Below, piece after piece: positions 3,666 to 51,032 of a stretch of DNA of 64,000 nt. Under the pieces are notes generated by a model. The model was not told where the DNA came from, did no database searches, and was given only the letters and a program-made list of their open reading frames with translations. The position numbers and the translations under genes were made by a program. The number at the start of each line of letters is the position of its first letter. Position 1 is the stretch's first letter. The stretch lies in the NCBI GenBank assembly GCA_963665195.1, contig OY762070.1, positions 4,977,809 through 5,041,808 of the forward strand, in the 5' to 3' direction. Source of the stretch: Pseudomonadales bacterium (GTDB lineage: Bacteria; Pseudomonadota; Gammaproteobacteria; Pseudomonadales; Azotimanducaceae).

Positions 3666-4217
3666 CCTGCGAGAGTACTAAGCGCCAAAGTCACCGGATT
3701 GCTGCTTCCAAGCGGAGCGCTACGGTACTTGCGGTTTGCGTCTTCGTACTGGCCTTTGGGACCGCGGCATGTACCGAAGCGCCAAGCTTGTCGCCAAGTG
3801 AACGCATCCTTGTTTGCCGGGCAGCCATCGCTACGGTCATGGGGCGGCCCATGGAGATCATCCGGGGCACTGAATCCGCCAACAGTACAGTCCGAACAAG
3901 CTACCGGAGGCCGGACGATAATACGCTGTGGCGGAACCTTTGCCGTTTCGACGGCAATCGTGTCATATGGGCATCCATTCGGGAGGACAACTCCACTGGT
4001 CGTTGGCGCTCCCACCATCTCGACCCCGTTGTGACGTTCGAGTTGGATGCCCGGTACGTGACCATAACGGAGGCATACGGCGACGGGACCGGTGTGAGAA
4101 AGAGCTACGCACATGGGCCAGCCGCACCATAGCGGCCCTACGACTAGCGCCTGGATACCGTGTCGGCGCCCCAGAGGTCAGCTAGGCGAGACCGAAAGCA
4201 AAAGGAGCGCGCACCAA

Positions 4218-4835
4218 TCAGAAGCGGATGCCCAGCAGCTTGCCCACGGCAGAGAGCGTCTCGTCCGGCGTCGAGACCTGCTCCGCAACCAAGCCAGTGG
4301 CTCGGGCGCCCCATACATTCGCTGCGTTGTCGTCCAGGAAGCCGATTTCTCTCGGCTTGTAGCCCATGTCCGCGGCGACGTGCCGATACGCCTCGACATC
4401 CGGTTTGCGCAGGCCGATCTGCCAAGACGTGTAGATCTTCCGAAACGGCCGCAGCGCATCGCCCAGGCGTTCTTCCCAGACTGCCTGATGCACGGCGTTG
4501 GTATTGGAGAAGCAGTACAGGGGGATGGCCTCGGCGATGCGCGGCAAGGCGTCCACCACGGGCGCGATCGGGTCCTGCAGCAGCGCATTCCAGCCGTCCT
4601 GCCATTCGGACTTCGAGAGCTCGATGCCGAGCTGCGCCGAGAGGTGCTCCAGATAGGTGTCGAAGTCGATCGCGTTGGTTTCGAGATCCGCGTAGGCCTC
4701 TTCGACTCGCCATCGCCGGGCGATGTCCGCTGCCGGGACGCCTACCGAACGCGCCCAATGTGCGAAGCAGGCGCGGCCATCCACGCCGAGCACGACGCCG
4801 CCGAGGTCCAGCAGGAGCGCTCGAATCGTATTCAC
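4218..4835 (-). CDS. HAD-IA family hydrolase
   Basis: 205 aa. Motif I LLDLGGV, plus FSNTN and KPD..Y, and a FLDDN acidic motif. Confidence 0.85.
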   Translation of the reverse strand: MNTIRALLLDLGGVVLGVDGRACFAHWARSVGVPAADIARRWRVEEAYADLETNAIDFDTYLEHLSAQLGIELSKSEWQDGWNALLQDPIAPVVDALPRIAEAIPLYCFSNTNAVHQAVWEERLGDALRPFRKIYTSWQIGLRKPDVEAYRHVAADMGYKPREIGFLDDNAANVWGARATGLVAEQVSTPDETLSAVGKLLGIRF

Positions 4836-5278
4836 TCGTCTGCGGTCCGCAGAGCCGCGGCGACCTCCTGCCCCAGGTCGGTGAGGCGATAGCCGACTTC
4901 CAGGCTCTGCGTCAGCCCAAGCGCCTTGAGGCGTCGGACATTGGCCTTGAACTTGGCGGTCGGAAGCCCCGCCGACGCGGCCAAGTCCGCCGCCCGGGTC
5001 CCCGGCTGCGCCTCAATCAGCGCCAGCGCCGCGCCCGTCCACGGCTTGGCGCTGCGTCGGTCCGTGGCGGCCGCGAGCACTATCTGGACAAGCAGGTGCG
5101 CCCAGTGGCGGAACCCGTGCTCGCCGCCCTCGATCTGGACTTCGACCAAGCCATCGGCGACGACCGGCAGACGACGCTGTTCTGACGCCGGATCGGCCCC
5201 AAGCACAAGCAGTGCGTGGTTCCGGCACGGGGCGTTGGCGATGCGCTGGAAAATCTGATGGAATCCGCTCGCGCTCAT
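4832..5278 (-). CDS. winged-helix (MarR-like) DNA-binding protein
   Basis: C-terminal wHTH GTRAADLAASAGLPTAKFKANVRRLKALGL. Stop overlaps the HAD start (ATGA). Divergent from the AKR gene with a 20-nt spacer. Start taken at MSASGF; an upstream ATG at 5308 is possible. Confidence 0.6.
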   Translation of the reverse strand: MSASGFHQIFQRIANAPCRNHALLVLGADPASEQRRLPVVADGLVEVQIEGGEHGFRHWAHLLVQIVLAAATDRRSAKPWTGAALALIEAQPGTRAADLAASAGLPTAKFKANVRRLKALGLTQSLEVGYRLTDLGQEVAAALRTADE

Positions 5279-5298
5279 CGGGAAAGGACAGAGCAAGC

Positions 5299-6297
5299 AT
5301 GATCGCAACGCGGAACATCGGCAAGACGGACATCGAAGTCAGCGAACTCGGTTTCGGGGGTGCGCCGCTCGGCGCGGTCGGGGATCGCATCACCGGCGCC
5401 GATGCGGCCGCCATCGTCAGCCGGGCGCGCGAAGGCGGCGTCCGCTACTTCGACACCGCGCCGCTCTACGGCCATGGCCTCAGCGAGAAGCGGCTCGGCG
5501 CGACGCTCGGCGAGTGGGAGCGCGACGACTTCGTCCTGTCCACCAAGATCGGCCGCTTGCTCGTCCCGGCAGCCGAAGGCGAGCGCTACGCGGGGATGCG
5601 CGACAGCGAACCGGTCGCCATCCGCTACGACTACTCCGAGGGCGCGGTGCGGCGTTCGCTGGAATCGAGCCTGGCGCGGCTCGGCCTCGACCGGGTGGAC
5701 ATTCTGCTCTGCCACGACATCGATGTCTGGACCCACGGCGACGCCCAGCCGGGCATCTTCGAGACCGCCCGCAAGGGCGCGCTCAAGGGCCTCGAGGCGC
5801 TGCGCGAAGAAGGCGTGGTGCGGGCCATCGGCCTCGGCGTAAACGAATGGCAGGTGTGCAGCCGCGTCATGGACGAGATGGATGTGGACTGCTTCCTGCT
5901 CGCCGGGCGGTTCACGCTGCTCGAACAGGCGCCGCTCGAGACCTTCCTGCCGAAGTGCGTAGAGCGCGGTGTCTCGATCGTCATCGGCGGGCCGTACAAC
6001 TCCGGCATCCTCGCCACCGACGAGCGGCGCCGCGCCACCTACGACTACAAGCCGGCGCCCGAAAAGCTGTGGCGGAAGGCGCAGGCCATCCGCCGAATGT
6101 GCGAATCCCACGGCGTGGACCCCCGCGCCGCGGCGCTGCAATATCCGCTGCGGCATCCCGCTGTTGCCGCCGTGATCCCCGGCGTCTGGGCGGTTCACGA
6201 AGTGGAAACCAACCTCGAACTGATCGCCGCGGACATTGCCGATGCGCTGTGGCACGACCTGGCAGAGGCCGACCTAGCGCAGATGATCGACGCATGA
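5299..6297 (+). CDS. aldo/keto reductase (complete copy)
   Basis: 332 aa. ELGFGGAPLG, YFDTAPLYGHGLSE and LLCHD are typical AKR motifs. Confidence 0.9.
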   Translation: MIATRNIGKTDIEVSELGFGGAPLGAVGDRITGADAAAIVSRAREGGVRYFDTAPLYGHGLSEKRLGATLGEWERDDFVLSTKIGRLLVPAAEGERYAGMRDSEPVAIRYDYSEGAVRRSLESSLARLGLDRVDILLCHDIDVWTHGDAQPGIFETARKGALKGLEALREEGVVRAIGLGVNEWQVCSRVMDEMDVDCFLLAGRFTLLEQAPLETFLPKCVERGVSIVIGGPYNSGILATDERRRATYDYKPAPEKLWRKAQAIRRMCESHGVDPRAAALQYPLRHPAVAAVIPGVWAVHEVETNLELIAADIADALWHDLAEADLAQMIDA

Positions 6298-6791
6298 AGC
6301 GCCTGCTGCTCGGCGTCGGCATCGGCGCACTCGGCGGCATCGCCGCGGGCTTCGCGCTCGGCATCGGCGTGTTTCCGTATCTGTTCCCGCCGCCGCCCGT
6401 CAACGAGGCGCTGCCGGAGCGCCTCGCCCCCGCCGTCGCCCAGGCCACCTTCATCCACGCCGACCCCGCCGATCCCATCCACTACGGCAGAGGCACCGCT
6501 ACGCTCTACGCGGACCTGTTGCGGCTGGAGGCGGATTTCGAGGTCGGCCCCGGGCCCAAGTTCCACGTCTATCTGGTACCCGATGCCGAGGTGACGCCGG
6601 AGACGGACGTGGAAGCGTCGATGTTCGTGGACCTCGGCAGGCTCAAGGCATTCGAAGGCAGTCAGAATTACCCGATTCCGCCCGGCGTCGCGCCGCTGGA
6701 TTACGGCAGCGTGGTGATCTGGTGCGAGCAGTTCGACGTGCTGATTTCGCCGGCGGCGGTCGAGCCCTCTGTCCCCAACGCAGGGACCTAG
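5744..6791 (+). repeat. direct repeat copy B of the AKR-3'/DM13 unit (partner 1-1051)
   Basis: See the partner feature. Offset is 5743 nt in the AKR part and 5740 nt at the DM13 stop. Confidence 0.9.
6294..6791 (+). CDS. DM13 domain-containing membrane-anchored protein (copy 2)
   Basis: ATGA overlap with the AKR stop. Collinear with 551-1051 but diverged and one codon shorter. Confidence 0.85.
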   Translation: MKRLLLGVGIGALGGIAAGFALGIGVFPYLFPPPPVNEALPERLAPAVAQATFIHADPADPIHYGRGTATLYADLLRLEADFEVGPGPKFHVYLVPDAEVTPETDVEASMFVDLGRLKAFEGSQNYPIPPGVAPLDYGSVVIWCEQFDVLISPAAVEPSVPNAGT

Positions 6792-7020
6792 CCCTCGCCT
6801 AGCCCAACGGCGGGCTGGTCGGCGCGACCGAGGTTGTTGCTGATCGCGACCATCTCCTCGGCTACGACCTCGGTCTATCGGACGAGGCGGTGCTGGACGT
6901 CAGCCCATGCACGACCGAGCGGCGCACGGACGGAAAGGCCAGCGCCAACACCGGTGGCGGCGCCTCGTCGACCGCGTAGCAAAGCGCGTGGGAGGGGGAA
7001 TCGCCGTCATTCTCGCTCAT
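6789..7020 (-). pseudogene. possible remnant of a nucleobase:cation symporter (NCS2)-like gene
   Basis: ATG at 7020 opens MSENDGDSPSHALCYAVDEAPPPVLALAF, which resembles the conserved NCS2 N-terminus (Y.LED.PP....L). The frame stops after 52 codons, and a second frame ends on a stop overlapping the DM13 stop. Confidence 0.25.
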
Positions 7021-7075
7021 GGTCTCTCGCGAGGCGGGCGCAAAGGCGCACCATGCCGGGGCGTTGGCGCGCTTC

Positions 7076-8122
7076 TCAGTGCGCTTCGGCCAATGCGCGC
7101 CGGATGCGCCCGATGCGCGCCTCGCGCAGGCGGATGCCGTACGCCGCGCCGGGCGTCGCGTCCACCCGCAACGCCCTCAGTTCGTCGATGAGCCGGCGGC
7201 GCGCCGTCAGCGAGTGGCCCGCGCAGCGCTCGGCGGTTGCGAGCACGAGTCCGGCCAGCGGCCCTTGGCGGAAGGCGTCGATGGCGAGCACGGCGTTCAG
7301 GAGCGCGGCCGCATCGGGTGCCGGCGCGGCGAGCGTCCTGCCATGCCTCGCGAGCGCGGTCGCGGCGCGCTGCGCAAGGCGAGCGGCGCGCAGTCGCTTG
7401 TAGAGGGCGTCGACTGCCGCTGCGTCGTTGACCCAGCCGATAGCGGCCAATGCCTGCTGGGGCGCGGCGAACTCGCAGCGCTGGAAGAGCCCCACGGTGT
7501 CCGGCAGGTCCAGTTCGTCGAACCAGCCAGTCGTGCCCACCGCGTCCAGCACGGCGAAGAAGCGATCCGGTCGCGGCGCGGCGGCCGCCTTCTCCCACTC
7601 CCGCCAGACGCGCTCGCCGGAGAGCGCCCGCAGCGCCGGGCGCATGGCGCGCATCAGGGCGAGCGTCTCTTCGGCCACCGTGAACTCGGCGAGCGCCGCG
7701 GCGAAGCGGGCGACGCGGAAGACGCGCAGGGGGTCCTCGGCAAAGGCCGGCGAGACGTGGCGCAGCACGCGCGCCCGCAGGTCGCGCTCGCCGCCGTAGG
7801 GATCGATCAGCGTCTCGCCGTCGCGGGCCATGGCGTTGACGGTGAGGTCGCGCCGGGCGAGGTCTTCCTCCAGCGTCACGTCCGGGTCCGCATCGCACTC
7901 GAAGTCCGCATGGCCGGGGCCGGTCTTGCGCTCGGTGCGAGCGAGGGCGTGCTCTTCGCCGGTGCGCGGATGCAGGAACACGGGGAAGTCCCGGCCCACT
8001 TGGCGGAAGCCGTGGCGTCGCATCGCGGCAGGCGTGGCGCCAACCACGACCCAATCGCGCTCCGTCGGTTCGAGGCCCAGCAGCGCATCGCGCACCGCGC
8101 CGCCGACCAGATAGGTCTTCAT
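7076..8122 (-). CDS. cca: CCA-adding tRNA nucleotidyltransferase
   Basis: [25 protein letters not shown] and [14 protein letters not shown] motifs. Start overlaps the apaH stop (ATGA). Confidence 0.9.
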
Positions 8123-8964
8123 GCGGCGCTGGTGCGCGAGCGCGCCTCTTGCGCCGCGACTCGATAGCGGCGTCCGTCTTCCACGCGCACTGCGGTTAGC
8201 GTGCGGCCCCAGACGCAGCCGGTGTCCAAGGCGACGATCTGCGGCCGCGACCGGACGCTGCGGGAGTCGCCGGTCGTAGTGCCGTCCAAGGCGGCCCAGT
8301 GGCCGAAGTAGAGCGTGCAGCCCAGGCGCGACGGATACGAGAACCACGGTCGGTAGCCGGTCGGCAGGTCGGCCAAGGCGCCCTTGTGGGTGAACTCCAT
8401 GCGCGCCGCGGCGTCCACGAGCCTCATGCGAGTGAAGTAATTGACGATGGCGCGATGCCGGTCCATGCCGGTGAGCGCCGCGTCCCACAGGTCCGGCTGG
8501 TCGCCATACATGGCCTTGAAGAACGCGTCGTGTCCGGCGCCGCGCAGGACGGCTTCCACCTCGCGCGCATTGGCGCGCGCCGTCGCCAGGTCCCAGATGT
8601 GCGGGATGCCGGCGTGAACCATGGCGAAACCGTCGCCTTCGGCGAGCAGGGGCTGGCGGCGCAGCCAGGCGGCGAGTTCGGCGCAGTCCGGCGCGGCCAG
8701 CAGCTCGCCGAGGGTGTCGCTCCGACGTTGCGCATGGCCGCCGTAGACCATCGCCAGGAAGTGCAGGTCGTGATTGCCGAGCACGCCGGCGAAGCGCTCG
8801 CCGAGATCGCGCAGGAAGCGCAGCGTGTCGAGCGATTTGTGGCCGCGGTTGACGAGGTCCCCGACGCACCAGAGCCGGTCGCTCGCGCCGAAGCGCATCT
8901 CTTCGATGAGCGCCTTGAGGCTGTCCAGGCAGCCTTGGATGTCGCCGACGATGTAGGTGGCCAT
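8119..8964 (-). CDS. apaH: bis(5'-nucleosyl)-tetraphosphatase (symmetrical)
   Basis: [19 protein letters not shown] and GNHDLH metallophosphatase motifs. Conserved position after apaG. Confidence 0.93.
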
Positions 8965-8975
8965 GGGCGTGCGGT

Positions 8976-9344
8976 TCAGTGCACCGCGTTCGGCGTCTCC
9001 AGCGAGAACGCGTCGATGGGCACGTTGAACGATTCGCCGCTTTCCGCGCGGAACTCGTAGTGGCCCTGCATGACGCCGACCGCGGTCTCCAGCACGCAGG
9101 CGCTGGTGTAGCGGAAGGCCTGCCCCGGGGCGATGCGCGGCTGCTTGCCGACCACGCCCGGGCCGCGCACTTCCTGCTCTGCGCCATCGCCGTTGGTGAT
9201 CAGCCAATAGCGGTTCAGGAGGCGCGCCGGCTCGTCGCCGCGATTGGCGATGGTGATGGTGTAGGCGAACACGTAGCGATCCGCCACCGGATCGGACTCG
9301 GCGGCGATGAAGCGCGTCTCTACGGTGATTTCAAACCCTCTCAC
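8976..9344 (-). CDS. apaG: ApaG (DUF525) protein
   Basis: [25 protein letters not shown] and [19 protein letters not shown] are typical of ApaG. Start taken at GTG 9344, preceded by GGAAGAGG. The longest ORF reaches 9428 but would encode an atypical 28-aa basic extension across a REP-like hairpin. Confidence 0.85.
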
Positions 9345-9389
9345 TCTGGCTGCCTCTTCCTGGTGCGAATGCTGTCGGTTGCGCTCGCG

Positions 9390-39502: not shown

Positions 39503-39763
39503 ATGTCCGACACCCGCGACTTCGACCGCGTGCTGTGGCGCAGCCGCCGCGGCATGCTGGAGCTCGATCTGCTGCTGGTAGGCTTCGCCCGCGACCGCTA
39601 TCGCGCCCTGTCGCCGGCCTTGCAGGACGCCTACAAGGAACTCCTGACGCTGGACGACTGGCGGGTCTGGGATTGGCTGCAGGAGCGCACGCCCGCGGAC
39701 CGTGCCTTGCGCGGCATCGTCGCGGAGATCGTCGCCTTCAATGCCGGCCAGGACGCGCCATGA
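39503..39763 (+). CDS. sdhE: FAD assembly factor SdhE (YgfY/CptB)
   Basis: 86 aa. RGMLELDLLL motif (RGxxE). Confidence 0.88.
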   Translation: MSDTRDFDRVLWRSRRGMLELDLLLVGFARDRYRALSPALQDAYKELLTLDDWRVWDWLQERTPADRALRGIVAEIVAFNAGQDAP

Positions 39764-40179
39764 ACCCGCACCGCGACGAGACGCACCTCGACTGGCAGCC
39801 CGGCTGGGACTGGCTGCTGCCCGTGGTGGGGCTGCACATCCTCTTCACCGTGCCGTGGGTGGCGGCGCTCGGCTGGTGGGCGCTCGTGCCCGGCGCGCTG
39901 TCGATGCTCTACCACCTCGGCATCTACCGGCGCGGCGAGACCTGGCGCTTCGCCTTCGTCGAGGACGCGGTGGTGCTCTTCGAGCCGGAGCGGCCGGAAC
40001 GCAAGGGCGAGGCGCGGCGTCCGGCAAAGCTGCGCGGCGGGCCTTGGATCACCGCCAACTGGGTGGTCGTGCGCACCAGCCGGCGCGTGCTGGCGATGCA
40101 TGGTTCGCGCTACGACGCGGTGCGCTTCGCGAGGCTCCGGCGGGCCCTCCTCGGCGGACTCGAGGCCGGGAACGGCTGA
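39760..40179 (+). CDS. YgfX/CptA-like inner-membrane protein (copy 1)
   Basis: ATGA overlap with sdhE. Two TM helices ([34 protein letters not shown]). Conserved position after sdhE. Confidence 0.72.
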
Positions 40180-40947
40180 AGCACGTCGAGCGGGTCCGCC
40201 GCCGGGTGGACGATGCTCGGCAGCGCCTGGGCGGCGCGGCGCGGGTAGTCGAGGGTGTAGTGCAGGCCGCGGCTCTCGCGCCGCATGAGCGCCGAACGGA
40301 CGATCAGCTCCGCCACATGCACCAGGTTGCGCAGTTCGATCAGGTCCGGGCCGACGCGGTGGCGGGCGTAGTAGTCGTGGATTTCGCGCTTGAGAAGGTC
40401 GATGCGATGCTGCGCGCGCTCCAGGCGCTTGTTGGTGCGCACGATGCCGACGTAGTCCCACATGAAGCGGCGCAGCTCCGTCCAGTTGTGGCTCAGCACC
40501 ACCTGCTCGTCGGAGTCCGAGACGCGGCTCTCGTCCCAATCCGGCAGTGCGACGGACGGTTGGCGCGCCGCCTCGCTGCGGCGCTGGGCGATGTCGGCGG
40601 CCGCGGCCTGGGCGAATACCAGGCACTCGAGCAGCGAATTGCTCGCCAGTCGGTTGGCGCCGTGCAGGCCGGTGCAGGCCGTCTCGCCAACCGCGTAGAG
40701 GCCGTCGATGTCCGTGCGGCTGGCGAGGTCCACGATCACGCCGCCGCAGGTGTAGTGCGCCGCCGGCACCACGGGGATGGGCTCGCGGCGGATGTCGATG
40801 TCGAGCTCCAGGCAGCGGGCCAGGATGGTGGGGAAGTGGGTTTCGAGGAAGCTGTCTTGCCGATGGCTGATGTCCAGATAGACGCAGCTCGCGCCGAGCC
40901 GCTTCATCTCGTGGTCGATGGCGCGCGCCACGATGTCGCGCGAGGCG
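40110..40947 (-). pseudogene. L-aspartate oxidase 3' fragment (duplicated, lacks the FAD-binding N-terminal 300 codons)
   Basis: Identical to the C-terminal part of nadB at 45547-46384. Homology ends at 40947. A GTG at 41174 creates a chimeric 354-codon ORF with 77 unrelated N-terminal residues. Confidence 0.85.
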
Positions 40948-41175
40948 GAGTAACTCTCGTGCGCCTTGCATGACTCCGGCACGGGCGGGCAAGCCTCCTG
41001 GCCGACCCTGCCACCCCGTTTGAGACCCGCGCCCGCCGAAGCGCGTATGGCCAGCGCTCTGTGCACGGCGTTCGTCAACCCCTCTATGCGCGGCTCCGAA
41101 TCCAAGCCAGCGCACCGCTTGCCGGAGTTCTTTCCGTCTGCCCCCGCAAGCATGGCGCACTGCGCGGCATTCACC

Positions 41176-41799
41176 TCAGCAAGCCACGAGGTCGGCGATG
41201 GCGGGCCAGAAAAGGCCGTCTATTGCGTCAACATCTTGCTCAAACTCAGCGGCTCGCTCACCTAGGGCGTATTTGGCCGGTACTTTGCCTTCCACCATCA
41301 CTGCTTCCATGAGCAGGCGGATCAGCGGCAGACGCAGGTTCCGCTCGTTCGGCACAGATGCCGCCATAGCCAGAAGCGCGAGATGCACCAGCCCGTGAAT
41401 TCTCCCGCTCTCGCTGAGCCGAGCCAGTTCGTCCGCTAGCAATGTGGTGATTCCGGCCCGTTTCAGGCTGTTGACGGCTCCCTTGACAACTACGGCGGAC
41501 GTGTCAGGCGGCCCGACCACGGACATGCCGGCATAAACCGTGACGGCCCAATCTGCTACGGCGCGAGCAAGCTTCTCCCTTGGCCCATTGCCCGATGTTG
41601 CGTTCTTGTCCGCGATGGCACCGCGCAAAGCGGCAGGCCACAGCACGAATGCGCCGACGCCCAGAGAATGAATGCGCCCCAGCCGGCGTCGATCCAACGC
41701 AGGAAGAAGAACAAACCGATCAGAACGACCAGCCAAGCGGCGAACGACCAGTACCTTCTCGTAGTCATTGGATTGCTCCATGCTGTGGGCTGTGCTCAT
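41176..41799 (-). CDS. island hypothetical protein (frame uncertain at the 5' end)
   Basis: Long minus-strand ORF. C-terminal ~170 aa have no recognised domain. An overlapping frame (start 41768) encodes a convincing TM helix, [33 protein letters not shown], so the true product may be a frameshifted membrane-anchored protein. Confidence 0.4.
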
Positions 41800-41896
41800 T
41801 ATCTCCCGGCACACTCTGAACCAGTAGTCCACAGCGGGGACGACTGCATGAAGCTCAACGCCGCTTTCGCCGTGCATTGTCGCCGCCGCTGTCGGC

Positions 41897-42283
41897 TCAG
41901 AACCAGCGGACGCCCACTAGGACGGCGTGCGCAACGGCGGCAATGGCGACGCCCCATTGCTCCGCCCCTGCAACCATGAACCCGTGGTCTGTGAGGTCCG
42001 GCTCCTTGGCTGAGACGCCATAGACCAGAAAGACCCCTAGGAACAGCAGTAGGGGCATCGGGCCACCGAGAAGGGCACCCCAAAGAGCGCCGACGCCAAG
42101 CCACAAGATGACGTTGGCGGACAGAAGGCCGGAGCCAGTGGACGTGCCGGGCGCGATCTTTCCTTGGATGAACGCGAACGGCATCGCAATCAGCCCGGAA
42201 AGCATGGTTGCGAGTCCGAAGAACGTCGCGCCGAACACGATGACGTAGGCGACCACGTTGGCGACAATGAGGGAGGTGGGCAT
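41897..42283 (-). CDS. island small integral membrane protein (128 aa, about 4 TM)
   Basis: ATG preceded by AGGAAGGA. Highly hydrophobic Gly/Ala/Leu-rich sequence. No family recognised. Confidence 0.6.
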   Translation of the reverse strand: MPTSLIVANVVAYVIVFGATFFGLATMLSGLIAMPFAFIQGKIAPGTSTGSGLLSANVILWLGVGALWGALLGGPMPLLLFLGVFLVYGVSAKEPDLTDHGFMVAGAEQWGVAIAAVAHAVLVGVRWF

Positions 42284-42707
42284 CGGGCCGGTCCTTCCTA
42301 CCCGTCTCGGCAGGGGGCGACCATAGCACAACCCGGCCGCCGCCAAAACGCGGTAGGTTCCCCCGCTCTCGCCGCTCGAACCTTCAACGCTCAGGAGCAA
42401 CATTTACGATCCCCATTGGATCGCATGGCGAGAAGCGCCCCGCCGACGTGATCGGAACACGGTACAGTGCTGCCATGTGTTGTCGGCGACGCGGAGGGCG
42501 AACTCGCCGGTCAGCAGCGCAACGGCGACGTGCTCGGCGCAGGCCCTGAGCGCCGAGCGCCGGTCCGAGATCGCCCGCACCGGCGTCGCAGACGCGCTGG
42601 GGCCTCCTGACGAACAACAGCCGCCGGAAAGACGCCCCGGCAGCGAGTTGCAAACGGCAGCCTCCTGCCGCCGCCGTCGCGTCTCGGTGCGGGAGGGGAA
42701 GCCAGAC

Positions 42708-43160
42708 CTACCTCTCTTGCTTCTCGCCTTTTTCCACAGCGTCGTACCGTTCCACTACCGCCTCCGCAAGACGAGCGTACGCGATCCGCCGCCTGCCATT
42801 CTCGTCCGGAAGGACGATTTCCGCGTGACAGGGCGCGGCTGGCCATTCGGCAGTGGCTGGAAGCGGATCTTCAATAACATCAAGCGGAGTCTCGTTGTCG
42901 TCGGGCTTGATCCTACGTATCGCGTTCACAGCGACCTCCGCGAACTTGGCGTTGGTACCCCGGCTCATCCGCACGAGCTTCCGTACTCGCGCTACCTGCT
43001 CCTCCGAGGTTTCCTCGCCTCCGCACTCCATCCAGTTCACCGATATGTCGCCGTTGTTCGGCACTTCGAAGCCGCGTGGCTGGACTACGCCTTCCTGAAT
43101 CTTGCTGGCTCCTACGTACCTAAGGACTCGATGGCCAGCGGGTAGAGGATCACCCTTCAT
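42708..43160 (-). CDS. island hypothetical protein C (150 aa)
   Basis: ORF whose ATG (43160) lies inside the last codons of the upstream gene (11-nt overlap; an alternative ATG is at 43190). Lower GC. No domain recognised. Confidence 0.55.
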   Translation of the reverse strand: MKGDPLPAGHRVLRYVGASKIQEGVVQPRGFEVPNNGDISVNWMECGGEETSEEQVARVRKLVRMSRGTNAKFAEVAVNAIRRIKPDDNETPLDVIEDPLPATAEWPAAPCHAEIVLPDENGRRRIAYARLAEAVVERYDAVEKGEKQER

Positions 43161-43998
43161 CCTGCAACAACGACTCAAGACCTCGTTCATGCACGAGCGC
43201 TAGCAGTGCCCCTAAGTCCACCGTCTCTGCTTGGCCTCCAACGTCAGAGTGCAGGTTCAATAGTACGTAGTCAACGCCGCCATCTGCGGCGAACTCAAGG
43301 TCAAACCGCCAGTCTTTGTCGCGCCAAGTGGCTGCATAGCGACCATCATCCAAAAGAAACAACCCGTCGGCCCTGCGTGCGCCGGAGACTTCGACGAAGC
43401 GCTGGAACTGCCTTCGCGACTCCGCATCAGGCGCAATTCCTTCATCGATTGCGATCTCCATGAGTTCACGGAGTCGGGCAGTGTAGGCCGACGAGAAGGT
43501 AGTCCTCTGCGAGGCTACCCAGGCGGCATTGAAGACCACCGGCGTTCTCACGAGAAAACCCGTCGATGTCGTAGCGGCCGAGTGGTGAAGCGCGTACCAC
43601 ACTACATGTACGCCAGATTCGAGCACTCCTTCGCTGTTCAGCTTATTCGCTGTGACCTTCTCTCCGAAGTGGTGCCACGCGGAATCCTGGAATACAGACT
43701 CTTCGAGCAGACGCTTTCGGCGAGCAAGGTCGTTTCCGCGGATGAGCACCGAGCTTTCGGCCGGGTCAGACCAATGTCGGTCCTGGGACCGGCTGATCGG
43801 CAGCTCTTCCTCGGCGGGGGCATTGACTACCACGGCAACGAGCTGCTGCGTCCAATGGTCCAACGACGGCCGCAACTGTCGGCCGTCGAGCGTCTGCCGC
43901 TCGGCTAGGTACGGACCATTGGCGCAAACGCCTAGCGGGTGGAGCGCGGTTTCCGCTACCGATGCTGGGGGATTGGGAAGTGCTGCCACGCTCATCAT
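43150..43998 (-). CDS. island hypothetical protein B (282 aa)
   Basis: ATGA overlap with the upstream gene. Lower GC. No domain recognised. Confidence 0.6.
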   Translation of the reverse strand: MMSVAALPNPPASVAETALHPLGVCANGPYLAERQTLDGRQLRPSLDHWTQQLVAVVVNAPAEEELPISRSQDRHWSDPAESSVLIRGNDLARRKRLLEESVFQDSAWHHFGEKVTANKLNSEGVLESGVHVVWYALHHSAATTSTGFLVRTPVVFNAAWVASQRTTFSSAYTARLRELMEIAIDEGIAPDAESRRQFQRFVEVSGARRADGLFLLDDGRYAATWRDKDWRFDLEFAADGGVDYVLLNLHSDVGGQAETVDLGALLALVHERGLESLLQDEG

Positions 43999-44675
43999 GC
44001 TGACCCGCTCGCGCGAAGATCAACCGCACCAATAACGGCACGCACATGGGACTGCAGGCGGTCCATGGCTTCCTCCATCGCCCCGAGCGACGGGGGCAGA
44101 TCACCGCAATCATTGATGTGATAGTTAGCCTGCAGGTATACGCGCTCGGTCTCCAAGTCCTTGCGACGGGGTTCCAGCGTAACGGTCAAGAGCCCGCCGT
44201 CCGAGCAACGTAACTTAATCTCCGCGGAGACGCCTCCCAACAGCTCGTCGATTCCAGTGACATCGGCCACGTCCGTGTACAGAGCCTTGCCAAGGTACTG
44301 AAAGGCCGACAAGCCGGATTGCTGCTCGTAGACTAGGGCGACGTTACAGCCGTACGAGGCCAGCGAGGCGCCTGACTCCGTGAGCATTATCGCAGACGAC
44401 ATTAGCCTACACACTCTGGTTGCGTCATCGAAATCGCGAGGATACTCGACCACGGCCTGGACACGGCGATCTTCCCCTACGGACAGCTCCATTCGATCAC
44501 GGTCGATTACGAATCGTCGAACGGGACTCATCCTTGCCGGACCAGCAATGGTTGCCAACTCGAGCGTGGCCTCCCACTGGGAGCAGAAGGCACTTGCCGC
44601 ACTCTCGTCGGTGAGAAGGTCCGTGCCCACGAGCACGACACTCGCACTCAGAATGTCCATGATGTCGGGTGCCAT
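43995..44675 (-). CDS. island hypothetical protein A (226 aa)
   Basis: ATG overlaps the TGA of the 47-codon leader ORF by 1 nt. Lower GC. No domain recognised. Confidence 0.6.
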   Translation of the reverse strand: MAPDIMDILSASVVLVGTDLLTDESAASAFCSQWEATLELATIAGPARMSPVRRFVIDRDRMELSVGEDRRVQAVVEYPRDFDDATRVCRLMSSAIMLTESGASLASYGCNVALVYEQQSGLSAFQYLGKALYTDVADVTGIDELLGGVSAEIKLRCSDGGLLTVTLEPRRKDLETERVYLQANYHINDCGDLPPSLGAMEEAMDRLQSHVRAVIGAVDLRASGSA

Positions 44676-44818
44676 CAGGTGAGGTCGCTTAGGTTCTGGC
44701 CATGCCGGCCGGGGTCACGCAGCGTAGCGTCCATGGTCACGCGTTCCCGTTTCGATTCGGCTTGCACGACATCAGGCCGGGTCGCCACCTCAACGATGGG
44801 CGTCCACTCGTCGTCCAT
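44675..44818 (-). CDS. island small ORF (47 aa, acidic N-terminus), first gene of the cassette
   Basis: Below the ORF-track size cut-off. Found by hand: AAGGAGGA sits 6 nt upstream of ATG 44818. Product MDDEWTPIVEVATRPDVVQAESKRERVTMDATLRDPGRHGQNLSDLT. The stop overlaps the next start. Confidence 0.45.
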   Translation of the reverse strand: MDDEWTPIVEVATRPDVVQAESKRERVTMDATLRDPGRHGQNLSDLT

Positions 44819-45149
44819 CCGGTCCTCCTTTCGTTAGTTGTGACCGTGCGGTCCACATGGTAGTTCAACCGGTGCCGTGTAGCGCGTCGTCCTCAGGGCC
44901 TGCAACGGCTCCGTAGTGCCCACCTGCTCCGAAGCGAGCTTTCGGCGTGCTGGCAAGACGTGGCTGTTCTTCCCGCCTCGCCGGTCGCGAAAGCCCCATC
45001 ATGAGGCATGACCCCATCACGTCGGCGGGCCGCTCCTAGGCACTCCTTCCACTCGGCGTGTCCTCTCTTCCGGATCGTTCGATGCACGAGTATGACAGAG
45101 TACGGCGTCGTGCGCGACGCCGCTGTGGCTTCAAGGCTGTGGCCACATA

Positions 45150-46384
45150 GGCATCGTCGCGGAGATCGTCGCCTTCAATGCCGGGCAGGACGCGCCGTGA
45201 ACCCGCACCGCGACGAGACGCACCTCGACTGGCAGCCCGGCTGGGACTGGCTGCTGCCCGTGGTGGGGCTGCACATCCTCTTCACCGTGCCGTGGGTGGC
45301 GGCGCTCGGCTGGTGGGCGCTCGTGCCCGGCGCGCTGTCGATGCTCTACCACCTCGGCATCTACCGGCGCGGCGAGACCTGGCGCTTCGCCTTCGTCGAG
45401 GACGCGGTGGTGCTCTTCGAGCCGGAGCGGCCGGAACGCAAGGGCGAGGCGCGGCGTCCGGCAAAGCTGCGCGGCGGGCCTTGGATCACCGCCAACTGGG
45501 TGGTCGTGCGCACCAGCCGGCGCGTGCTGGCGATGCATGGTTCGCGCTACGACGCGGTGCGCTTCGCGAGGCTCCGGCGGGCCCTCCTCGGCGGACTCGA
45601 GGCCGGGAACGGCTGAAGCACGTCGAGCGGGTCCGCCGCCGGGTGGACGATGCTCGGCAGCGCCTGGGCGGCGCGGCGCGGGTAGTCGAGGGTGTAGTGC
45701 AGGCCGCGGCTCTCGCGCCGCATGAGCGCCGAACGGACGATCAGCTCCGCCACATGCACCAGGTTGCGCAGTTCGATCAGGTCCGGGCCGACGCGGTGGC
45801 GGGCGTAGTAGTCGTGGATTTCGCGCTTGAGAAGGTCGATGCGATGCTGCGCGCGCTCCAGGCGCTTGTTGGTGCGCACGATGCCGACGTAGTCCCACAT
45901 GAAGCGGCGCAGCTCCGTCCAGTTGTGGCTCAGCACCACCTGCTCGTCGGAGTCCGAGACGCGGCTCTCGTCCCAATCCGGCAGTGCGACGGACGGTTGG
46001 CGCGCCGCCTCGCTGCGGCGCTGGGCGATGTCGGCGGCCGCGGCCTGGGCGAATACCAGGCACTCGAGCAGCGAATTGCTCGCCAGTCGGTTGGCGCCGT
46101 GCAGGCCGGTGCAGGCCGTCTCGCCAACCGCGTAGAGGCCGTCGATGTCCGTGCGGCTGGCGAGGTCCACGATCACGCCGCCGCAGGTGTAGTGCGCCGC
46201 CGGCACCACGGGGATGGGCTCGCGGCGGATGTCGATGTCGAGCTCCAGGCAGCGGGCCAGGATGGTGGGGAAGTGGGTTTCGAGGAAGCTGTCTTGCCGA
46301 TGGCTGATGTCCAGATAGACGCAGCTCGCGCCGAGCCGCTTCATCTCGTGGTCGATGGCGCGCGCCACGATGTCGCGCGAGGCG
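45150..46384. repeat. 1,235-bp direct repeat, right copy
   Basis: See 39713-40947. Confidence 0.93.
45197..45616 (+). CDS. YgfX/CptA-like inner-membrane protein (copy 2, no intact sdhE upstream)
   Basis: Same protein as 39760-40179, but the start codon is GTG (SNP), and only the last 47 nt of sdhE precede it. Confidence 0.65.
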
Positions 46385-47292
46385 AGCTCGGCCCTCGGAT
46401 CGAAGCGCTCCATGAAGCGCGTGCCGTCCGGCAGCAAGAGCTTGCCACCTTCGCCGCGCACGGCTTCCGAGATGAGAAAGGAGCGCGCTTCGGGGTGGTA
46501 CAGGCAGGTGGGATGGAACTGGTTGAACTCCATGTTCGCCACTCGGCAGCCGGCCCGCCAAGCCATGGCGATGCCATCGCCCGTCGCGCCGTCGGGATTG
46601 CTTGTGTAGAGGTAGGCCTTGCTCGCGCCGCCGGTGGCAAGCACCACGAAGGGCGCCTCGAACACTTCCACCGCATCTGCGGCGCTGTGGTAGGCGTAGG
46701 CGCCGAGCACGCGGTTCTGCCGATGTTCGGGTGCCGGCAGGGGAATGGCGTTGCCGTCCGACGTGCGTGGTCGCTGACGCTTGGAACGCTCGCCCCGGGC
46801 GAACTTCTGGGTGGTGGCAATGTCGATGGCCACCCGGCCGCTCTGGATGTCGATATTCGGATGTGCCCGCGCCCGTTCGATCAGCGTCCTGCCGATCGCC
46901 GCGCCGGTCGCGTCCGCTACATGCAGCACGCGCCGATGGCTGTGCCCGCCCTCCCGGGTGAGATGCGGCTCGCCGTCCTCGCGGTCGAAGCTAAGCCCCA
47001 TGTCCACCACGTGCTGGATGGCCTGCGGCCCGCGCGACACGGCGAACCGCACGGCCTCTGCGTCGCATAGACCAGCGCCGGCGGCGATCGTGTCCTCGAT
47101 GTGCGACTCGAAGCTGTCGCTGGCCGCAGTAACCGCCGCAACGCCGCCTTGGGCGCGGTTCGTCGCCCCGCCATGCACGGCGTCCTTCGACAGCACGGTG
47201 ACCTGGGCGTCGTCCGCCAGGCGCAGCGCAGTGGCAAGCCCGGCCGCCCCGCTGCCGATCACCAGCACATCCGTTCGAGTCCGATTCGCCAC
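45547..47292 (-). CDS. nadB: L-aspartate oxidase
   Basis: [15 protein letters not shown] motif, [23 protein letters not shown], and C-terminal [14 protein letters not shown] start. About 25 extra residues ([27 protein letters not shown]) relative to the typical NadB as I recall it. The 3' end overlaps ygfX copy 2 by 70 nt. Confidence 0.92.
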
Positions 47293-47461
47293 GCGAGGAA
47301 CCGTTGCGTTTTCGTTGCAGCGAGTATAGCGCCGGGGTCCGGCGCTAGTGTGCCGTCGCGGAATCGCCTGACATATGCCGCGCAGTCGAGCGTCTCCCAC
47401 CAAGCGTCGTTTGGTGGTCAAATGAGGTCCGACGAGGCGCTCCGCCGTGGACGGATGCGCG

Positions 47462-49168
47462 TTACGGTGGCGGTTCGCTCGGGCGGGACCAATCCAGGCG
47501 AATGTCCCAGTCGTAGACGAACTCTTCCGGCAGCGTTGGCGCGGTCGCGTTGTCGATATGGGTGTAGACGTTGGCGGGCGGCTCCGGCATCGCGTCGCGA
47601 CCGTAGATGTAGTCCTGGTCGAGCACGATGGCGCGGTAGGCCTTGTTAAGTGCCAGCGCTCGCGTCACCGACGGCACGACCAGCGCATAGACGTCCGCCG
47701 CAGCTTCCACCCGTTCCCGGTCGATGCTGCCGTCCGCATTGAACCAGCGCGCGAACATCTCCGGGTTGCTGCGGAACTCGCCGCCGCCGCCGACGCGCTC
47801 GAGGTAGACGGCGATCTCGCCACGGGTCTCGCCGAAGCTTGGCGCGTCGGGCATGCCCTTGAGGTCGATGTAGCCCCAACCCGGGGCGCCGTCGACCTTG
47901 CGCGGGAAGCCGAAGGTCTTGTCGACGGTGACGCCGACCGAGGTGTGGCAACCCATGCAGAACAGGGTCTCCTCGTACGTGGCGGCGCGCAGTTCGCCGC
48001 TGCGGTCCTCGATGAAGCCCTGCAGCGACCAGCCGAACTTGTTGTCGAGGCCGCGGTCGCCGAGGTGGGCGTACTGGGGCATGTTGCCGAGTTCCTTCTC
48101 GAACGCCTCGAGCTGGTACTGGCGCGCGTAGACCTGCTTGCTGTAGGCGACCCACTTGCGCATGTAGCGGACCTCCTTCATGCGCCGCGACGATCCGATC
48201 TCGCCGTCTTCGGCGATCCCGAGGTAGCGCACCGTGTGCAGAAACTCGGTGCCCGTCGGGTAGAGGTGGGTATCGCGGAACTCGTCGACGGCGGCGCCCA
48301 CGTAACCGGTCGGCAGGGCGACGCGTCGGGCGACGCCGAGCAGACCGTCGCCATCGAGGTCGACACCGACGCGTCGCTCGTCCACGGGCGGCATGGTGAT
48401 CGAGTCGAGTCCCTTGATGCCGGCCTCGAGGATCGCGAGGTTCGCGAGGTACACGTCCCGGGAGCGACTGCCGCTGGCGTCTGTCCGGAACTGTACCGGC
48501 AGGCGGATCATGACATCGTCGGTGGAGCCGTTGGTCGGCCAGAACGTGCTAGGGAACGGCTTGTAGTTGAACGCCACCCAATCGCTGCCGTCGAGGGCGA
48601 AGCCTTGATCGTCGAACGCCGCCGCGCCGCGCTGCAGACCGTCGAGGTCGGGAATCCAGCCCGAGAAACCGGCTTGGCGCAGACGCGGCGCAAGGGCAGA
48701 GTAGTTGTCGTCGTCCACCCATGCGCGGATCTCGTCGTCGGATACGCGCCCGACTTCTGCGGACCGGTCCTCGAACAGGTTTCGCCAGTGGTTGGTCATG
48801 CCGACGTCGCTGAAGCTATAGGCGACCTGCAGGTCGTCATCGTTCATGACGTTCTCCCGGCTCGGGATCTCGCGCTGGTGGCACACGTAGCAGGGGTTGA
48901 AGCGTCCTTCGGTGCGCGTGTAGCACTGCGGCGGAATGATCGCCTCCGGGTTGTAGGCAGTCCGTATGGGGTGGACGTCCGGCAGCGGACGCGGCACCAC
49001 GGCGTCGCTGTCGCCGAGATACTCGAGGACCTGTTCGTGGTAGGGGGCCGGAGGCACCTCCGCGGCGTCTGCCAGCACGGCGGCGGTCGGCGTGCGTTCG
49101 GACTGCGGCAGACAGCCGCAGAGGACCAACGACGCCAGCGCGAGGTACGCGAGCCCCCAGGCCCGCAT
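47462..49168 (-). CDS. lipoprotein with two CXXCH haem-binding motifs
   Basis: Lipobox LVLCGC. CYVCH and CMGCH motifs about 330 residues apart. 568 aa. No named family recognised. Confidence 0.7.
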
Positions 49169-49358
49169 TGGAGCTCGTATCGGGCCGGGTCGGCGAACGG
49201 GAACGGCATTACCCGTTCGTGGACATCCGCGCATCGTCAAAGGTGTGTCGCTCGCTACGCGGTTGCCGCCGCGCCCGTCCGGCACCTCGCTCGGGGGTGT
49301 CAAGAACCCGGGCCGACTTCCGTCGTGGGCGTCTGCCCGGGTTCTTGGTCCGGTGGCG

Positions 49359-51032
49359 CTACCAACGAGCGTTAAGCCACGCACCGGGTGCAGGGCCGCG
49401 CGCTGCAGCGCCGCGCAGGCTCGACGAGAACGGGTTGCCGACCCGCGACGTGCAGCCGGTGTCGAGCGGCGCGGCTGCGGCGAACAGGCTGCCACCATCG
49501 TCGCACGGTGGCGGCACGACGCCTCTCACGTCGAACTCCCAGACTGCATCGCCGAAACCTTCCGGGACATCCTCGAGATCGGTGCTGCTCGGATGCTGCA
49601 CGGCGACCACGAACTTCTCGGGGTTGAGCGGGTGGAAGATCATGCCGGTGTTCTCGGAGCCGGCAACCTGGATGCTCATGAAGTGGTCGAGCGATTCGGC
49701 GACACCATTGCCGTCGGTGTCTCGGCCGAACCAAATGTCGCCGCCGACATCGCCCCTGTTGGGGGAGTCCTCGATGATGTAGATGTTGCCGAGTGCATCC
49801 TGGGCTAGGTTGTCGGGCGAGTTCAGGTTGCCGGTGGTCGCTGCGAAGCCGACGTTCTTGGCCGACTTGGCGGTCGCGAACGGGCGCACGATCGCTTTGC
49901 GGTTGCCCAGCATCTCGATGGAGATCACGGAATGTTCCGACGTGATGGCGACGTAGAGCACCTCGTTGAAATTGGCCAGCATGCCGACCTCCATATCCTC
50001 CGGTCGGCCGTAGGGCGTGCCGCCGACGTCGTCTGCCGCCGCACGTCCGCCGCGCGCGTCGGCGCGCTCCCTCGGATCCACGGTCGGGCCGTCCATGAAG
50101 GGATCGTTGACACCGGGCAGCGGCTCGCCGTCGGCATCGGTGACGGGAACCCAGGTGGCCGGACCGAAGCGTTGCGCGTTCTTGTTCACGCCTTCGTTCC
50201 AGTTGGCCGCGGGATCGCCGCCGGTCTCCATGAAGGCATCCACCGACAGCACGAAGGTCTGTCCGCCGCCGGCGTAGTCGCCGGGCGTCTTGAGCACCAG
50301 CGCGTAGATGGAACCGGAGTTCCACTCGTCGATGAAATAGATGACCCGGTTGGGGAAGCGACGGCTGAAGTTGATGCCCTCGTGCGCGACGCGGGCGACC
50401 GAGTCGAGGATCCGGTAGTCCTCTCCCTCAACCAAGGCGCTGACGAGAGGGTCGGCTGGAGCGTCGCCGAGCGGATCCAGGATCTCGACGATTCGCCCGA
50501 GCCCCGACCATTCCTCGCCGAGGAGGACGGTGCCGTTGGGCGTCCAGCGCGCCGGGTCGAAGGCGGCGAAGTCCTGTGCCCACGCCGGGCATGATTGGCG
50601 CCAGCAGGCGCCGAAGTCGGACGCCATGGAGTCTCCGGCGAAGAGCAATTCGGTGCGGTCTTCGGCCGTGTCGTACCGGGACAGGCCGGCACCGAACGGC
50701 GTCTCGTGCGGAATGAAGATGTACCGGCCCGACGGGTCGTAGGCCAGCATGTCGAACATCGACGACGAGCCGCCGAACGGCACGCGCTGCACGGACTGCG
50801 TGGCATCGGCCTCGACCTCCTTGAGGCTCATGAGGTTGCGCTGCGAAAGGCCCGCCGGGGTTTGCCACGGCGAGTTGAGTTCGTTGACGTGGTTGGGGGA
50901 CGCGACCGCGGTGGATTGCGTCAGCGGGTTGAAGAACGGATCGGTTCCGGCCCACGCCGCCGTTGCGGCGAGCGCGACGACAGCGAGCGAGGCGGCGGCA
51001 AGGGGGGGGGGCGACACAAGCGTGCGGCTCAT
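49359..51032 (-). CDS. secreted PhoX/DUF839-like beta-propeller protein
   Basis: Signal peptide. GTPYGRPEDME and SPDNLAQDALGNIYIIED resemble PhoX/DUF839 signatures. The family call is from memory only. Confidence 0.65.
   Translation of the reverse strand: MSRTLVSPPPLAAASLAVVALAATAAWAGTDPFFNPLTQSTAVASPNHVNELNSPWQTPAGLSQRNLMSLKEVEADATQSVQRVPFGGSSSMFDMLAYDPSGRYIFIPHETPFGAGLSRYDTAEDRTELLFAGDSMASDFGACWRQSCPAWAQDFAAFDPARWTPNGTVLLGEEWSGLGRIVEILDPLGDAPADPLVSALVEGEDYRILDSVARVAHEGINFSRRFPNRVIYFIDEWNSGSIYALVLKTPGDYAGGGQTFVLSVDAFMETGGDPAANWNEGVNKNAQRFGPATWVPVTDADGEPLPGVNDPFMDGPTVDPRERADARGGRAAADDVGGTPYGRPEDMEVGMLANFNEVLYVAITSEHSVISIEMLGNRKAIVRPFATAKSAKNVGFAATTGNLNSPDNLAQDALGNIYIIEDSPNRGDVGGDIWFGRDTDGNGVAESLDHFMSIQVAGSENTGMIFHPLNPEKFVVAVQHPSSTDLEDVPEGFGDAVWEFDVRGVVPPPCDDGGSLFAAAAPLDTGCTSRVGNPFSSSLRGAAARGPAPGAWLNARW

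Follow-up and report, generated by a model that had tools for sequence, protein, structure and literature searches.

Three-component toxin–antitoxin systems consist of a toxin, an antitoxin and a third gene for a chaperone or regulator, as in TAC or paaR–paaA–parE; we know of none in which the third gene is exchanged between unrelated families. Small multigene operons of the defence or toxin–antitoxin kind are as such well known, and candidates for them are now common. Another line of described systems makes use of the fold of the TATA-binding protein (TBP). TBP has been reported to be absent from bacteria, and RNase HIII and DNA glycosylases bind their substrates through TBP-like modules (PMC3597702). 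In RnlA, the first TBP-like domain (TBP1) is required for RNA binding (PMC8266594), and TBP-like domains are also fused, as presumed sensors, to bacterial Schlafen defence nucleases, in 1.5% of the pSlfn architectures (PMC13056530). Here, we describe an operon of three genes, A, B and C, preceded by a short upstream open reading frame (uORF), in 64,000 nucleotides of a Pseudomonadales bacterium of the Azotimanducaceae (assembly GCA_963665195.1, contig OY762070.1, positions 4,977,809 to 5,041,808 of the forward strand; this whole stretch is called the window). Judged by its genomic context, we lean towards reading A–B–C as a rare, uncharacterised conflict system of the toxin–antitoxin/abortive-infection or defence kind. 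What argues for this reading is the coupled operon, its recurrence across phyla, the joint divergence of B and C, the exchangeable first genes, the mosaic ancestry of the locus, its defence neighbours and its position in a low-GC insert, taken together.

No described system of this composition was found, and each of the closest ones differs in a definite way. RnlA and LsoA of the RNase LS systems (RnlAB/LsoAB), which are anti-phage toxin–antitoxin systems, resemble the predicted A protein in their tandem of TBP-like domains. Nevertheless, the TBP-like domains of RnlA are fused to a HEPN RNase, whereas A is a stand-alone protein of 226 residues without a third domain; it ends after the second TBP-like repeat, where RnlA and LsoA continue into a C-terminal HEPN domain with an Rx4-6H motif, which A lacks. 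RnlB, in turn, is unrelated to the partners of A. With the TBP of archaea and eukaryotes, A would share the bipartite topology S1-H1-S2-S3-S4-S5-H2, present twice, but it does not belong to the TBP family (PF00352) by sequence and its halves are arranged differently. Schlafen defence proteins combine a TBP-like domain with an effector, as we propose here; in them, however, the domain is fused to the nuclease, whereas A is encoded on its own and C, the presumed effector, has no relationship to Schlafen. Like three-component toxin–antitoxin systems, A–B–C has three small, co-directional, overlapping genes, of which two form a conserved core and the third lies upstream of it, but its products fall in no known toxin, antitoxin, SecB-like chaperone or regulator family, and no HTH or RHH domain was detected. 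The B–C pair also has the two adjacent, coupled small genes of a type II toxin–antitoxin system; most antitoxins of that type carry a DNA-binding domain, however, and none was detected in B, while C appears from its sequence to lie outside the known toxin superfamilies.

Operon structure and translation

A sequence-only reading of this DNA had set out four minus-strand open reading frames of 47, 226, 282 and 150 residues, and all four are found where it placed them (Table 1), chained by the start/stop overlaps that it described. At the uORF/A junction one base, at 44675, is common to the TGA and the ATG; A and B overlap by ATGA at 43995-43998, and B and C by 11 nt at 43150-43160. All four frames show GC1 > GC2 < GC3 when GC is counted by codon position, with GC2 at 0.44-0.46. 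Because codon-position GC is coding-like and A–B–C homologues occur in the same order elsewhere, this layout is not a chance product of high-GC DNA. A, B and C are real genes, translated as one coupled unit, and the translational coupling proposed earlier is thus upheld by the overlapping junctions and the coding-like GC. Gene C could also be read from an ATG at 43190, giving 160 residues; the start at 43160 was preferred since every homologue opens with MKGDPLP. The operon probably ends at a terminator-like hairpin about 65 nt past the C stop. Terminator-like sites in the region are in total no more numerous than in shuffled sequences, and only the position of this hairpin is suggestive.

The same data bear on whether these frames are still under selection in the host at all. 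Inert, decaying acquired DNA would suit the singleton status of full-length B and of the uORF and the truncated nadB pseudogene next door, but three intact frames with conserved motifs and preserved overlaps, a GC2 as low as in coding sequence and the presence of the invariant residues of the C superfamily make this explanation highly improbable.

The 47-residue frame stands apart from the other three. Its peptide is a singleton (cluster P0003) whose sequence is not conserved, and what had been called a four-gene cassette is better described as three genes and a uORF. The uORF carries the Shine–Dalgarno sequence noted earlier, AAGGAGGA, and gene A has none of its own, either in the window or in its closest relatives among the 31 related loci (L001-L031) with which the window was compared. 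In two of these, L016/L017, a 19-residue uORF preceded by AAGGAGAG ends on the ATG of A, and in L020 an 11-residue uORF does the same; remoter A loci have no uORF and a Shine–Dalgarno sequence directly before A. We read the 47-residue frame as a translational-coupling or regulatory leader rather than a fourth component. Carrying the sole strong ribosome-binding site, it would fix a low expression ratio for the genes downstream. The upstream region of about 330 nt that had been described as non-coding (44819-45149) indeed holds no supported open reading frame, and no sigma-70 consensus site was found in it; over this region the window shares no nucleotide motif with L017 or L020, and its DNA does not align with theirs.

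Recurrence and exchange of the genes

The operon had been called an orphan, which is wrong for three of its four frames. Relatives of A fill at least 181 representative clusters at 50% identity, all of them stand-alone proteins of about 220 residues (exhaustive phmmer, E<1e-3); C has homologues at 43-51% identity, and the C-terminal domain of B occurs beside every C. A word-indexed protein search returned only self-matches for A and B, and their relatives were found by exhaustive phmmer and through gene neighbourhoods. The sequence-only reading had proposed looking for the genes together in other genomes and near defence genes: A, B and C do recur together, and in some of the other genomes defence genes lie near all three families, as described below.

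B and C are the stable core of this recurrence. In each of the 13 fetched loci with both genes (L001-L013) they are neighbours and usually overlap, in most cases by 4 nt; L025 has the same arrangement. In L001-L013, the C-terminal part of about 115 residues of the gene directly upstream of C is 31-46% identical to B residues ~170-279. Over 16 loci, the distances separating the B C-terminal domains closely follow those separating the C proteins (Mantel r = 0.925, p = 2e-4); the two are inherited and diverging together.

Gene A, in turn, is followed by a B-like gene, usually overlapping, in all eight of eight independent A contexts, and each of these has a C gene, a C-like frame or a remnant after B. 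C was called as a gene in L016-19 and L021 and left uncalled by annotators in L020, L022 and L023/24. In L031, where the independent B was recovered by hidden Markov models (HMMs) derived from the alignment, a C-like frame is visible by eye. L028-30 hold only a C remnant, possibly frameshifted, which reflects either decay of C or frameshift errors in low-coverage long-read contigs. In L028 (~6300-6750), C appears to be reduced to a fragment (..NPYHAEIRLP..), and an in-frame MKG... stretch lies in the 3' part of B.

Several kinds of gene precede the B–C core. It is a member of the A family in the window and the eight A contexts, and a distant A' in L001 and L025 (70% probability and E 4e-5 when compared with the A profile by hhalign). 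In L014, a TIGR04255 protein (75 bits; cut-off 30) stands directly upstream of B–C where A would otherwise be, and a homologue 37% identical to it has the same position in L015; A itself has no TIGR04255 match. The TIGR04255 family is uncharacterised and sporadically distributed, and no mention of it was found in the literature searched. In L006 and L009-L011, the first gene encodes a 326-residue protein that weakly matches fn3 at its C-terminal end. In L002-5 and L008 (e.g. L003 5377-5511), this gene is cut down to its last 45 codons, with B–C intact; the rest is replaced by an inserted AAA_16 ATPase, and further upstream lie AIPR/DUF4420 (L003, L004, L008) or GmrSD (L002). This remnant is a case of turnover inside a defence island. 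The ATPase was considered as a fourth type of first gene and rejected because the 45-residue remnant separates it from B. B–C stays intact through exchange or loss of the first gene.

The window itself combines two ancestries. Its A is closest to those of L017 (~51%) and L020 (46-48%), whereas its B C-terminal domain and its C most resemble those of the MKGDPLP clade (43% and 50%, respectively, to L007), and its B–C is only 13-20% identical to the B–C of L017 and L020. Since A and B–C have their nearest relatives in different lineages, the locus is a mosaic.

An addiction (toxin–antitoxin) module that only stabilises the acquired segment, with no anti-phage role, would agree with a tightly coupled B–C that survives alone when the first gene is destroyed, and with a small insert that carries no other obvious selective cargo. 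We hold it to be unlikely, however, as searches of plasmids and phages did not find the genes, no DNA-binding domain that could serve autoregulation was detected in B, the third gene is usually kept and the neighbours are defence rather than mobility genes.

In taxonomic terms, the genome matches of C are nearly all metagenome-assembled genomes (MAGs): Poriferihabitans, Pseudohongiella, Arenicellales, Aestuariivita, Paracoccaceae, Dehalococcoidia and Hyphomicrobiales, with one match in an Acidobacteria genome. The spread thus takes in Gamma- and Alphaproteobacteria, Dehalococcoidia and Acidobacteria. A metagenome scan with a sub-alignment of A found nothing. The matches L006-L031 include one to Candidatus Poriferihabitans and several bins or contigs of a few recurring sample series (CAR2 bins, ERZ2506-2507 assemblies), which may point to a marine or sponge-associated habitat, or simply to sampling.

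Predicted features of the three proteins

The A, B and C families are all missing from Pfam, NCBIfam, PADLOC 2.0 and PHROGs. The six proteins encoded in the insert gave no match in Pfam, PADLOC, NCBIfam or PHROGs, and to this extent the earlier statement that the products have no recognisable domains stands; it fails for A, which is confidently predicted to have a tandem TBP-like fold. B, C and first-gene proteins from the other loci likewise have no match in PADLOC-DB 2.0.0, with the exception of an unrelated neighbouring ATPase, and PDB sequence searches with profiles of A, C, TIGR04255 and the B C-terminal domain and with a single B returned nothing useful.

The AlphaFold2 model of A (58-sequence alignment) has a pLDDT of 94.7 and a pTM of 0.89. 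Its elements follow the order S1-H1-S2-S3-S4-S5-H2 twice, the last helix spanning residues 197-224. In a Foldseek search of the PDB with this model, TBP came out best (E 1.6e-5 to 5e-4, probability 1.0), and RnlA chains followed at E 1.5e-3 (6y2p_A). The structural alignments with TBP have 9-12% identity, TM 0.36-0.44 and rmsd 9-10 A, the low TM indicating that the two halves are packed differently. In BFVD, the top match was an unnamed viral protein (TM 0.57-0.63), followed by giant-virus TBPs and an RNase LS-like phage protein. The family conserves the motifs RDR, G.N..(V/L)VY, EPR and N.H, and the model places the conserved polar residues R61, N111, R170, N184 and H186 within beta-strands or at strand ends, which would fit a binding face like the concave sheet of TBP. 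At the sequence level, 58 members of the A family gave no Pfam match at E<=0.01 and no NCBIfam or PDB sequence match. Two other relationships of A were considered and rejected. Kinship with TIGR04255 is unsupported by NCBIfam (0 of the 58 members match the model at its cut-off of 30 bits), and hhalign against two TIGR04255 proteins gave a probability of 0.8%; a comparison with the 326-residue fn3 protein showed no relation.

The predicted fold would also suit an accessory nucleic-acid-handling or regulatory module, in which A binds RNA or DNA with B and C as cofactors and no conflict is involved, since the TBP-like domains of RNase HIII and DNA glycosylases are substrate-binding (PMC3597702) and some of the loci lie among housekeeping genes. 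Against it, the system is rare and sporadic across phyla, and its first gene is exchanged from one locus to the next; a conserved metabolic neighbour was never seen, and the N-terminal part of B evolves fast. We therefore consider an accessory role improbable.

B as a full-length protein is a singleton in the protein clusters, and its N-terminal ~165 residues are unique to the window. Its C-terminal domain (~115 residues) has the pattern helix - EEGI.P - ...F..F - L.L.DDG...A.W...W.L...F - V.YVLL. The sole match of this domain in a PDB sequence search was a marginal similarity to Protein L (E ~1e-3), which covers a single beta-hairpin and was treated as a local resemblance.

C reads MKGDPLP...ISVNW...APCHAEI, with seven homologous proteins in the identity range given above and 13 further loci from scans of metagenomes and of one genome per species. 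All of 17 diverse members of the C superfamily share Arg14, Phe31 and Ser40, and His112 is near-invariant among them. No match to C was found in Pfam, NCBIfam, PADLOC, PHROGs or PDB sequences. The motifs of C were considered as those of ADP-ribosyltransferases (R-S-E), RES, GIY-YIG, beta-beta-alpha-Me, minimal nucleotidyltransferase and barnase-like proteins, and none of these readings fits the residues conserved across the superfamily.

Gene neighbourhoods, the insert and its flanks

Neighbouring genes in the related loci are often connected with defence. In L002 there are fragments of GmrSD and part of a gene whose N-terminus, judged by eye, resembles a cytosine methylase; L003, L004 and L008 have DUF4420 and AIPR, and L011 a Schlafen AlbA_2 protein. 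In L012, an Arenicellales MAG, a 2,059-residue protein with HTH_upst_double_PIN and PIN-TPR-GreABC matches lies directly upstream of B–C (3210-9389). Large proteins with faint N6_Mtase and MmeI_Mtase matches accompany L016-18, Mrr-helicase-methylase and BrnA accompany L020, and a transposase accompanies L023. Taken together, defence or restriction–modification neighbours occur in about half of ~10 independent contexts.

Several results weigh against a conflict system. The neighbour count was scored by eye in those ~10 contexts and is not an enrichment statistic, and several A loci have housekeeping surroundings: pheST, moeA, hisS (L028) and glnA (L022). No relative was found in the plasmid, phage (50,697 records) and IMG/VR viral-contig collections, although such elements are frequent carriers of defence and addiction modules. 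HMMs of known toxins, antitoxins, nucleases and defence proteins match none of the components, and a Pfam search of 18 B sequences found no DNA-binding domain (HTH, RHH, AbrB or similar). The role of C as an effector is suggested by four conserved residues and by gene order; its AlphaFold2 model, built on eight sequences, was poor (pLDDT 49), and it was discarded after Foldseek gave nothing below E = 0.5.

The DNA that carries the operon was described earlier as compositionally distinct and acquired, which agrees with a GC of 0.58-0.66 inside the insert against 0.68-0.71 in its flanks; it is horizontally acquired. The insert lies between two direct repeats that are offset by 5,437 bp and differ by 2 mismatches over 1,235 bp (Table 1). 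Pfam detected no integrase domain in the insert proteins, and the 64-kb window lacks tRNA genes. In place of the short att repeats of an integrative island, a duplicated 1,235-bp piece of chromosome flanks the insert. From the repeat geometry, we infer that a 5.4-kb circle carrying a nadB fragment may have entered by a single homologous crossover. Beyond the operon, the insert holds a second unit of two genes, which is probably separate since the terminator-like hairpin follows C. The very hydrophobic, probably membrane, 128-residue protein and the 233-residue protein of this unit have no family match, and the latter has no plasmid match either.

Table 1. Features of the operon, the low-GC insert and its flanks (window coordinates)
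Feature	Position	Strand	Basis or remarks
uORF, 47 aa	44675-44818	minus	ORF list and sequence reading
Gene A, 226 aa, predicted tandem TBP-like fold	43995-44675	minus	ORF list, homologues, AlphaFold2 model
Gene B, 282 aa, variable N-terminal part and conserved C-terminal domain	43150-43998	minus	
B C-terminal domain (~aa 165-282)	43153-43506	minus	alignment and HMM
Gene C, 150 aa, small putative alpha/beta protein, putative effector or toxin	42708-43160	minus	
Shine–Dalgarno sequence AAGGAGGA	44823-44830	minus	read from sequence, 4 bases before uORF ATG
Upstream non-coding leader and presumed promoter, ~330 nt	44819-45149	minus	ends at direct-repeat boundary
Terminator-like hairpin	42620-42644	minus	10-bp stem, 7 G-C pairs, T-rich tail
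Low-GC insert, 4,202 bp (4.2 kb), operon and second unit of two genes	40948-45149		GC contrast, direct repeats
Left direct-repeat copy, 1,235 bp	39713-40947		small convergent ORF and 3' 838 bp of nadB
Right direct-repeat copy, 1,235 bp	45150-46384		runs on into intact nadB
Truncated nadB'	40110-41174		left repeat copy
Intact nadB, longest ORF	45547-47421		domains FAD_binding_2 and Succ_DH_flav_C
Protein of 128 aa, very hydrophobic, probably membrane	41897-42283	minus	singleton cluster P0161
ORF of 233 aa	41176-41877	minus	second insert unit

A 17-nt inverted repeat, CCCGCCGACGTGATSGG, occurs at 42439-42455 (plus strand) and 45013-45029 (minus strand) and nowhere else in the 64-kb window, with ~0.1 matches expected by chance. 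Its two copies, of which the second lies in the upstream leader, bracket exactly the uORF–A–B–C unit with its leader and terminator. The repeat is absent from the 31 related loci, and it may mark a mobile cassette or be a coincidence.

A phage or mobile-element remnant, such as a moron or anti-defence cargo rather than a host system, might be suspected from the low-GC insert, the bracketing repeat and the unnamed viral protein that heads the BFVD matches of A (TM 0.57-0.63). We give this very little credence: there is no sequence match in the 50,697 phage records or the IMG/VR contigs, and the insert proteins have no phage structural, integrase or replication matches.

Outside the insert, a 678-residue frame adjoining nadB (47462-49498, minus strand) has the CxxCH haem-binding motifs CYVCH and CMGCH and no Pfam match; it may represent an undescribed family of c-type cytochromes.

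Proposed mechanism and significance

If A–B–C is a conflict system, its parts could be arranged as follows. C, in which Arg and Ser are invariant and His nearly so, would be the effector or toxin, and the C-terminal domain of B would hold it inactive. The fast-evolving N-terminal part of B would link the B–C pair to A, and A would be the nucleic-acid-binding or sensing component, as TBP-like domains are in RnlA and bacterial Schlafens. Infection or loss of the element would then release C and stop growth. A more specific form of this proposal, to which we attach only tentative weight, is a new class of anti-phage or abortive-infection system in which A senses, the modular adaptor B releases C, a small effector with a new fold and an Arg/Ser/His active site outside all current families, and sensors are interchangeable on B–C. 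A would here recognise phage nucleic acid or protein, and the B–C core would be wired to TBP-like A, TIGR04255 or fn3-containing sensors.

The A–B–C unit is small (2.1 kb), self-contained and easily cloned, which makes the hypothesis directly testable. If it is correct, three uncharacterised families would be added to those of conflict systems, namely a stand-alone bipartite TBP-fold protein, a modular adaptor and a small Arg/Ser/His protein, and the loci would give a clean example of one effector–adaptor core plugged into different first genes. Should the tandem-TBP protein of bacteria turn out to form a new sensor–effector pair with the Arg/Ser/His protein, the gain would be greatest. Since TBP has been reported to be absent from bacteria (PMC3597702), a sizeable bacterial family predicted to have the complete TBP topology with its two repeats is also relevant to the history of the TBP fold.

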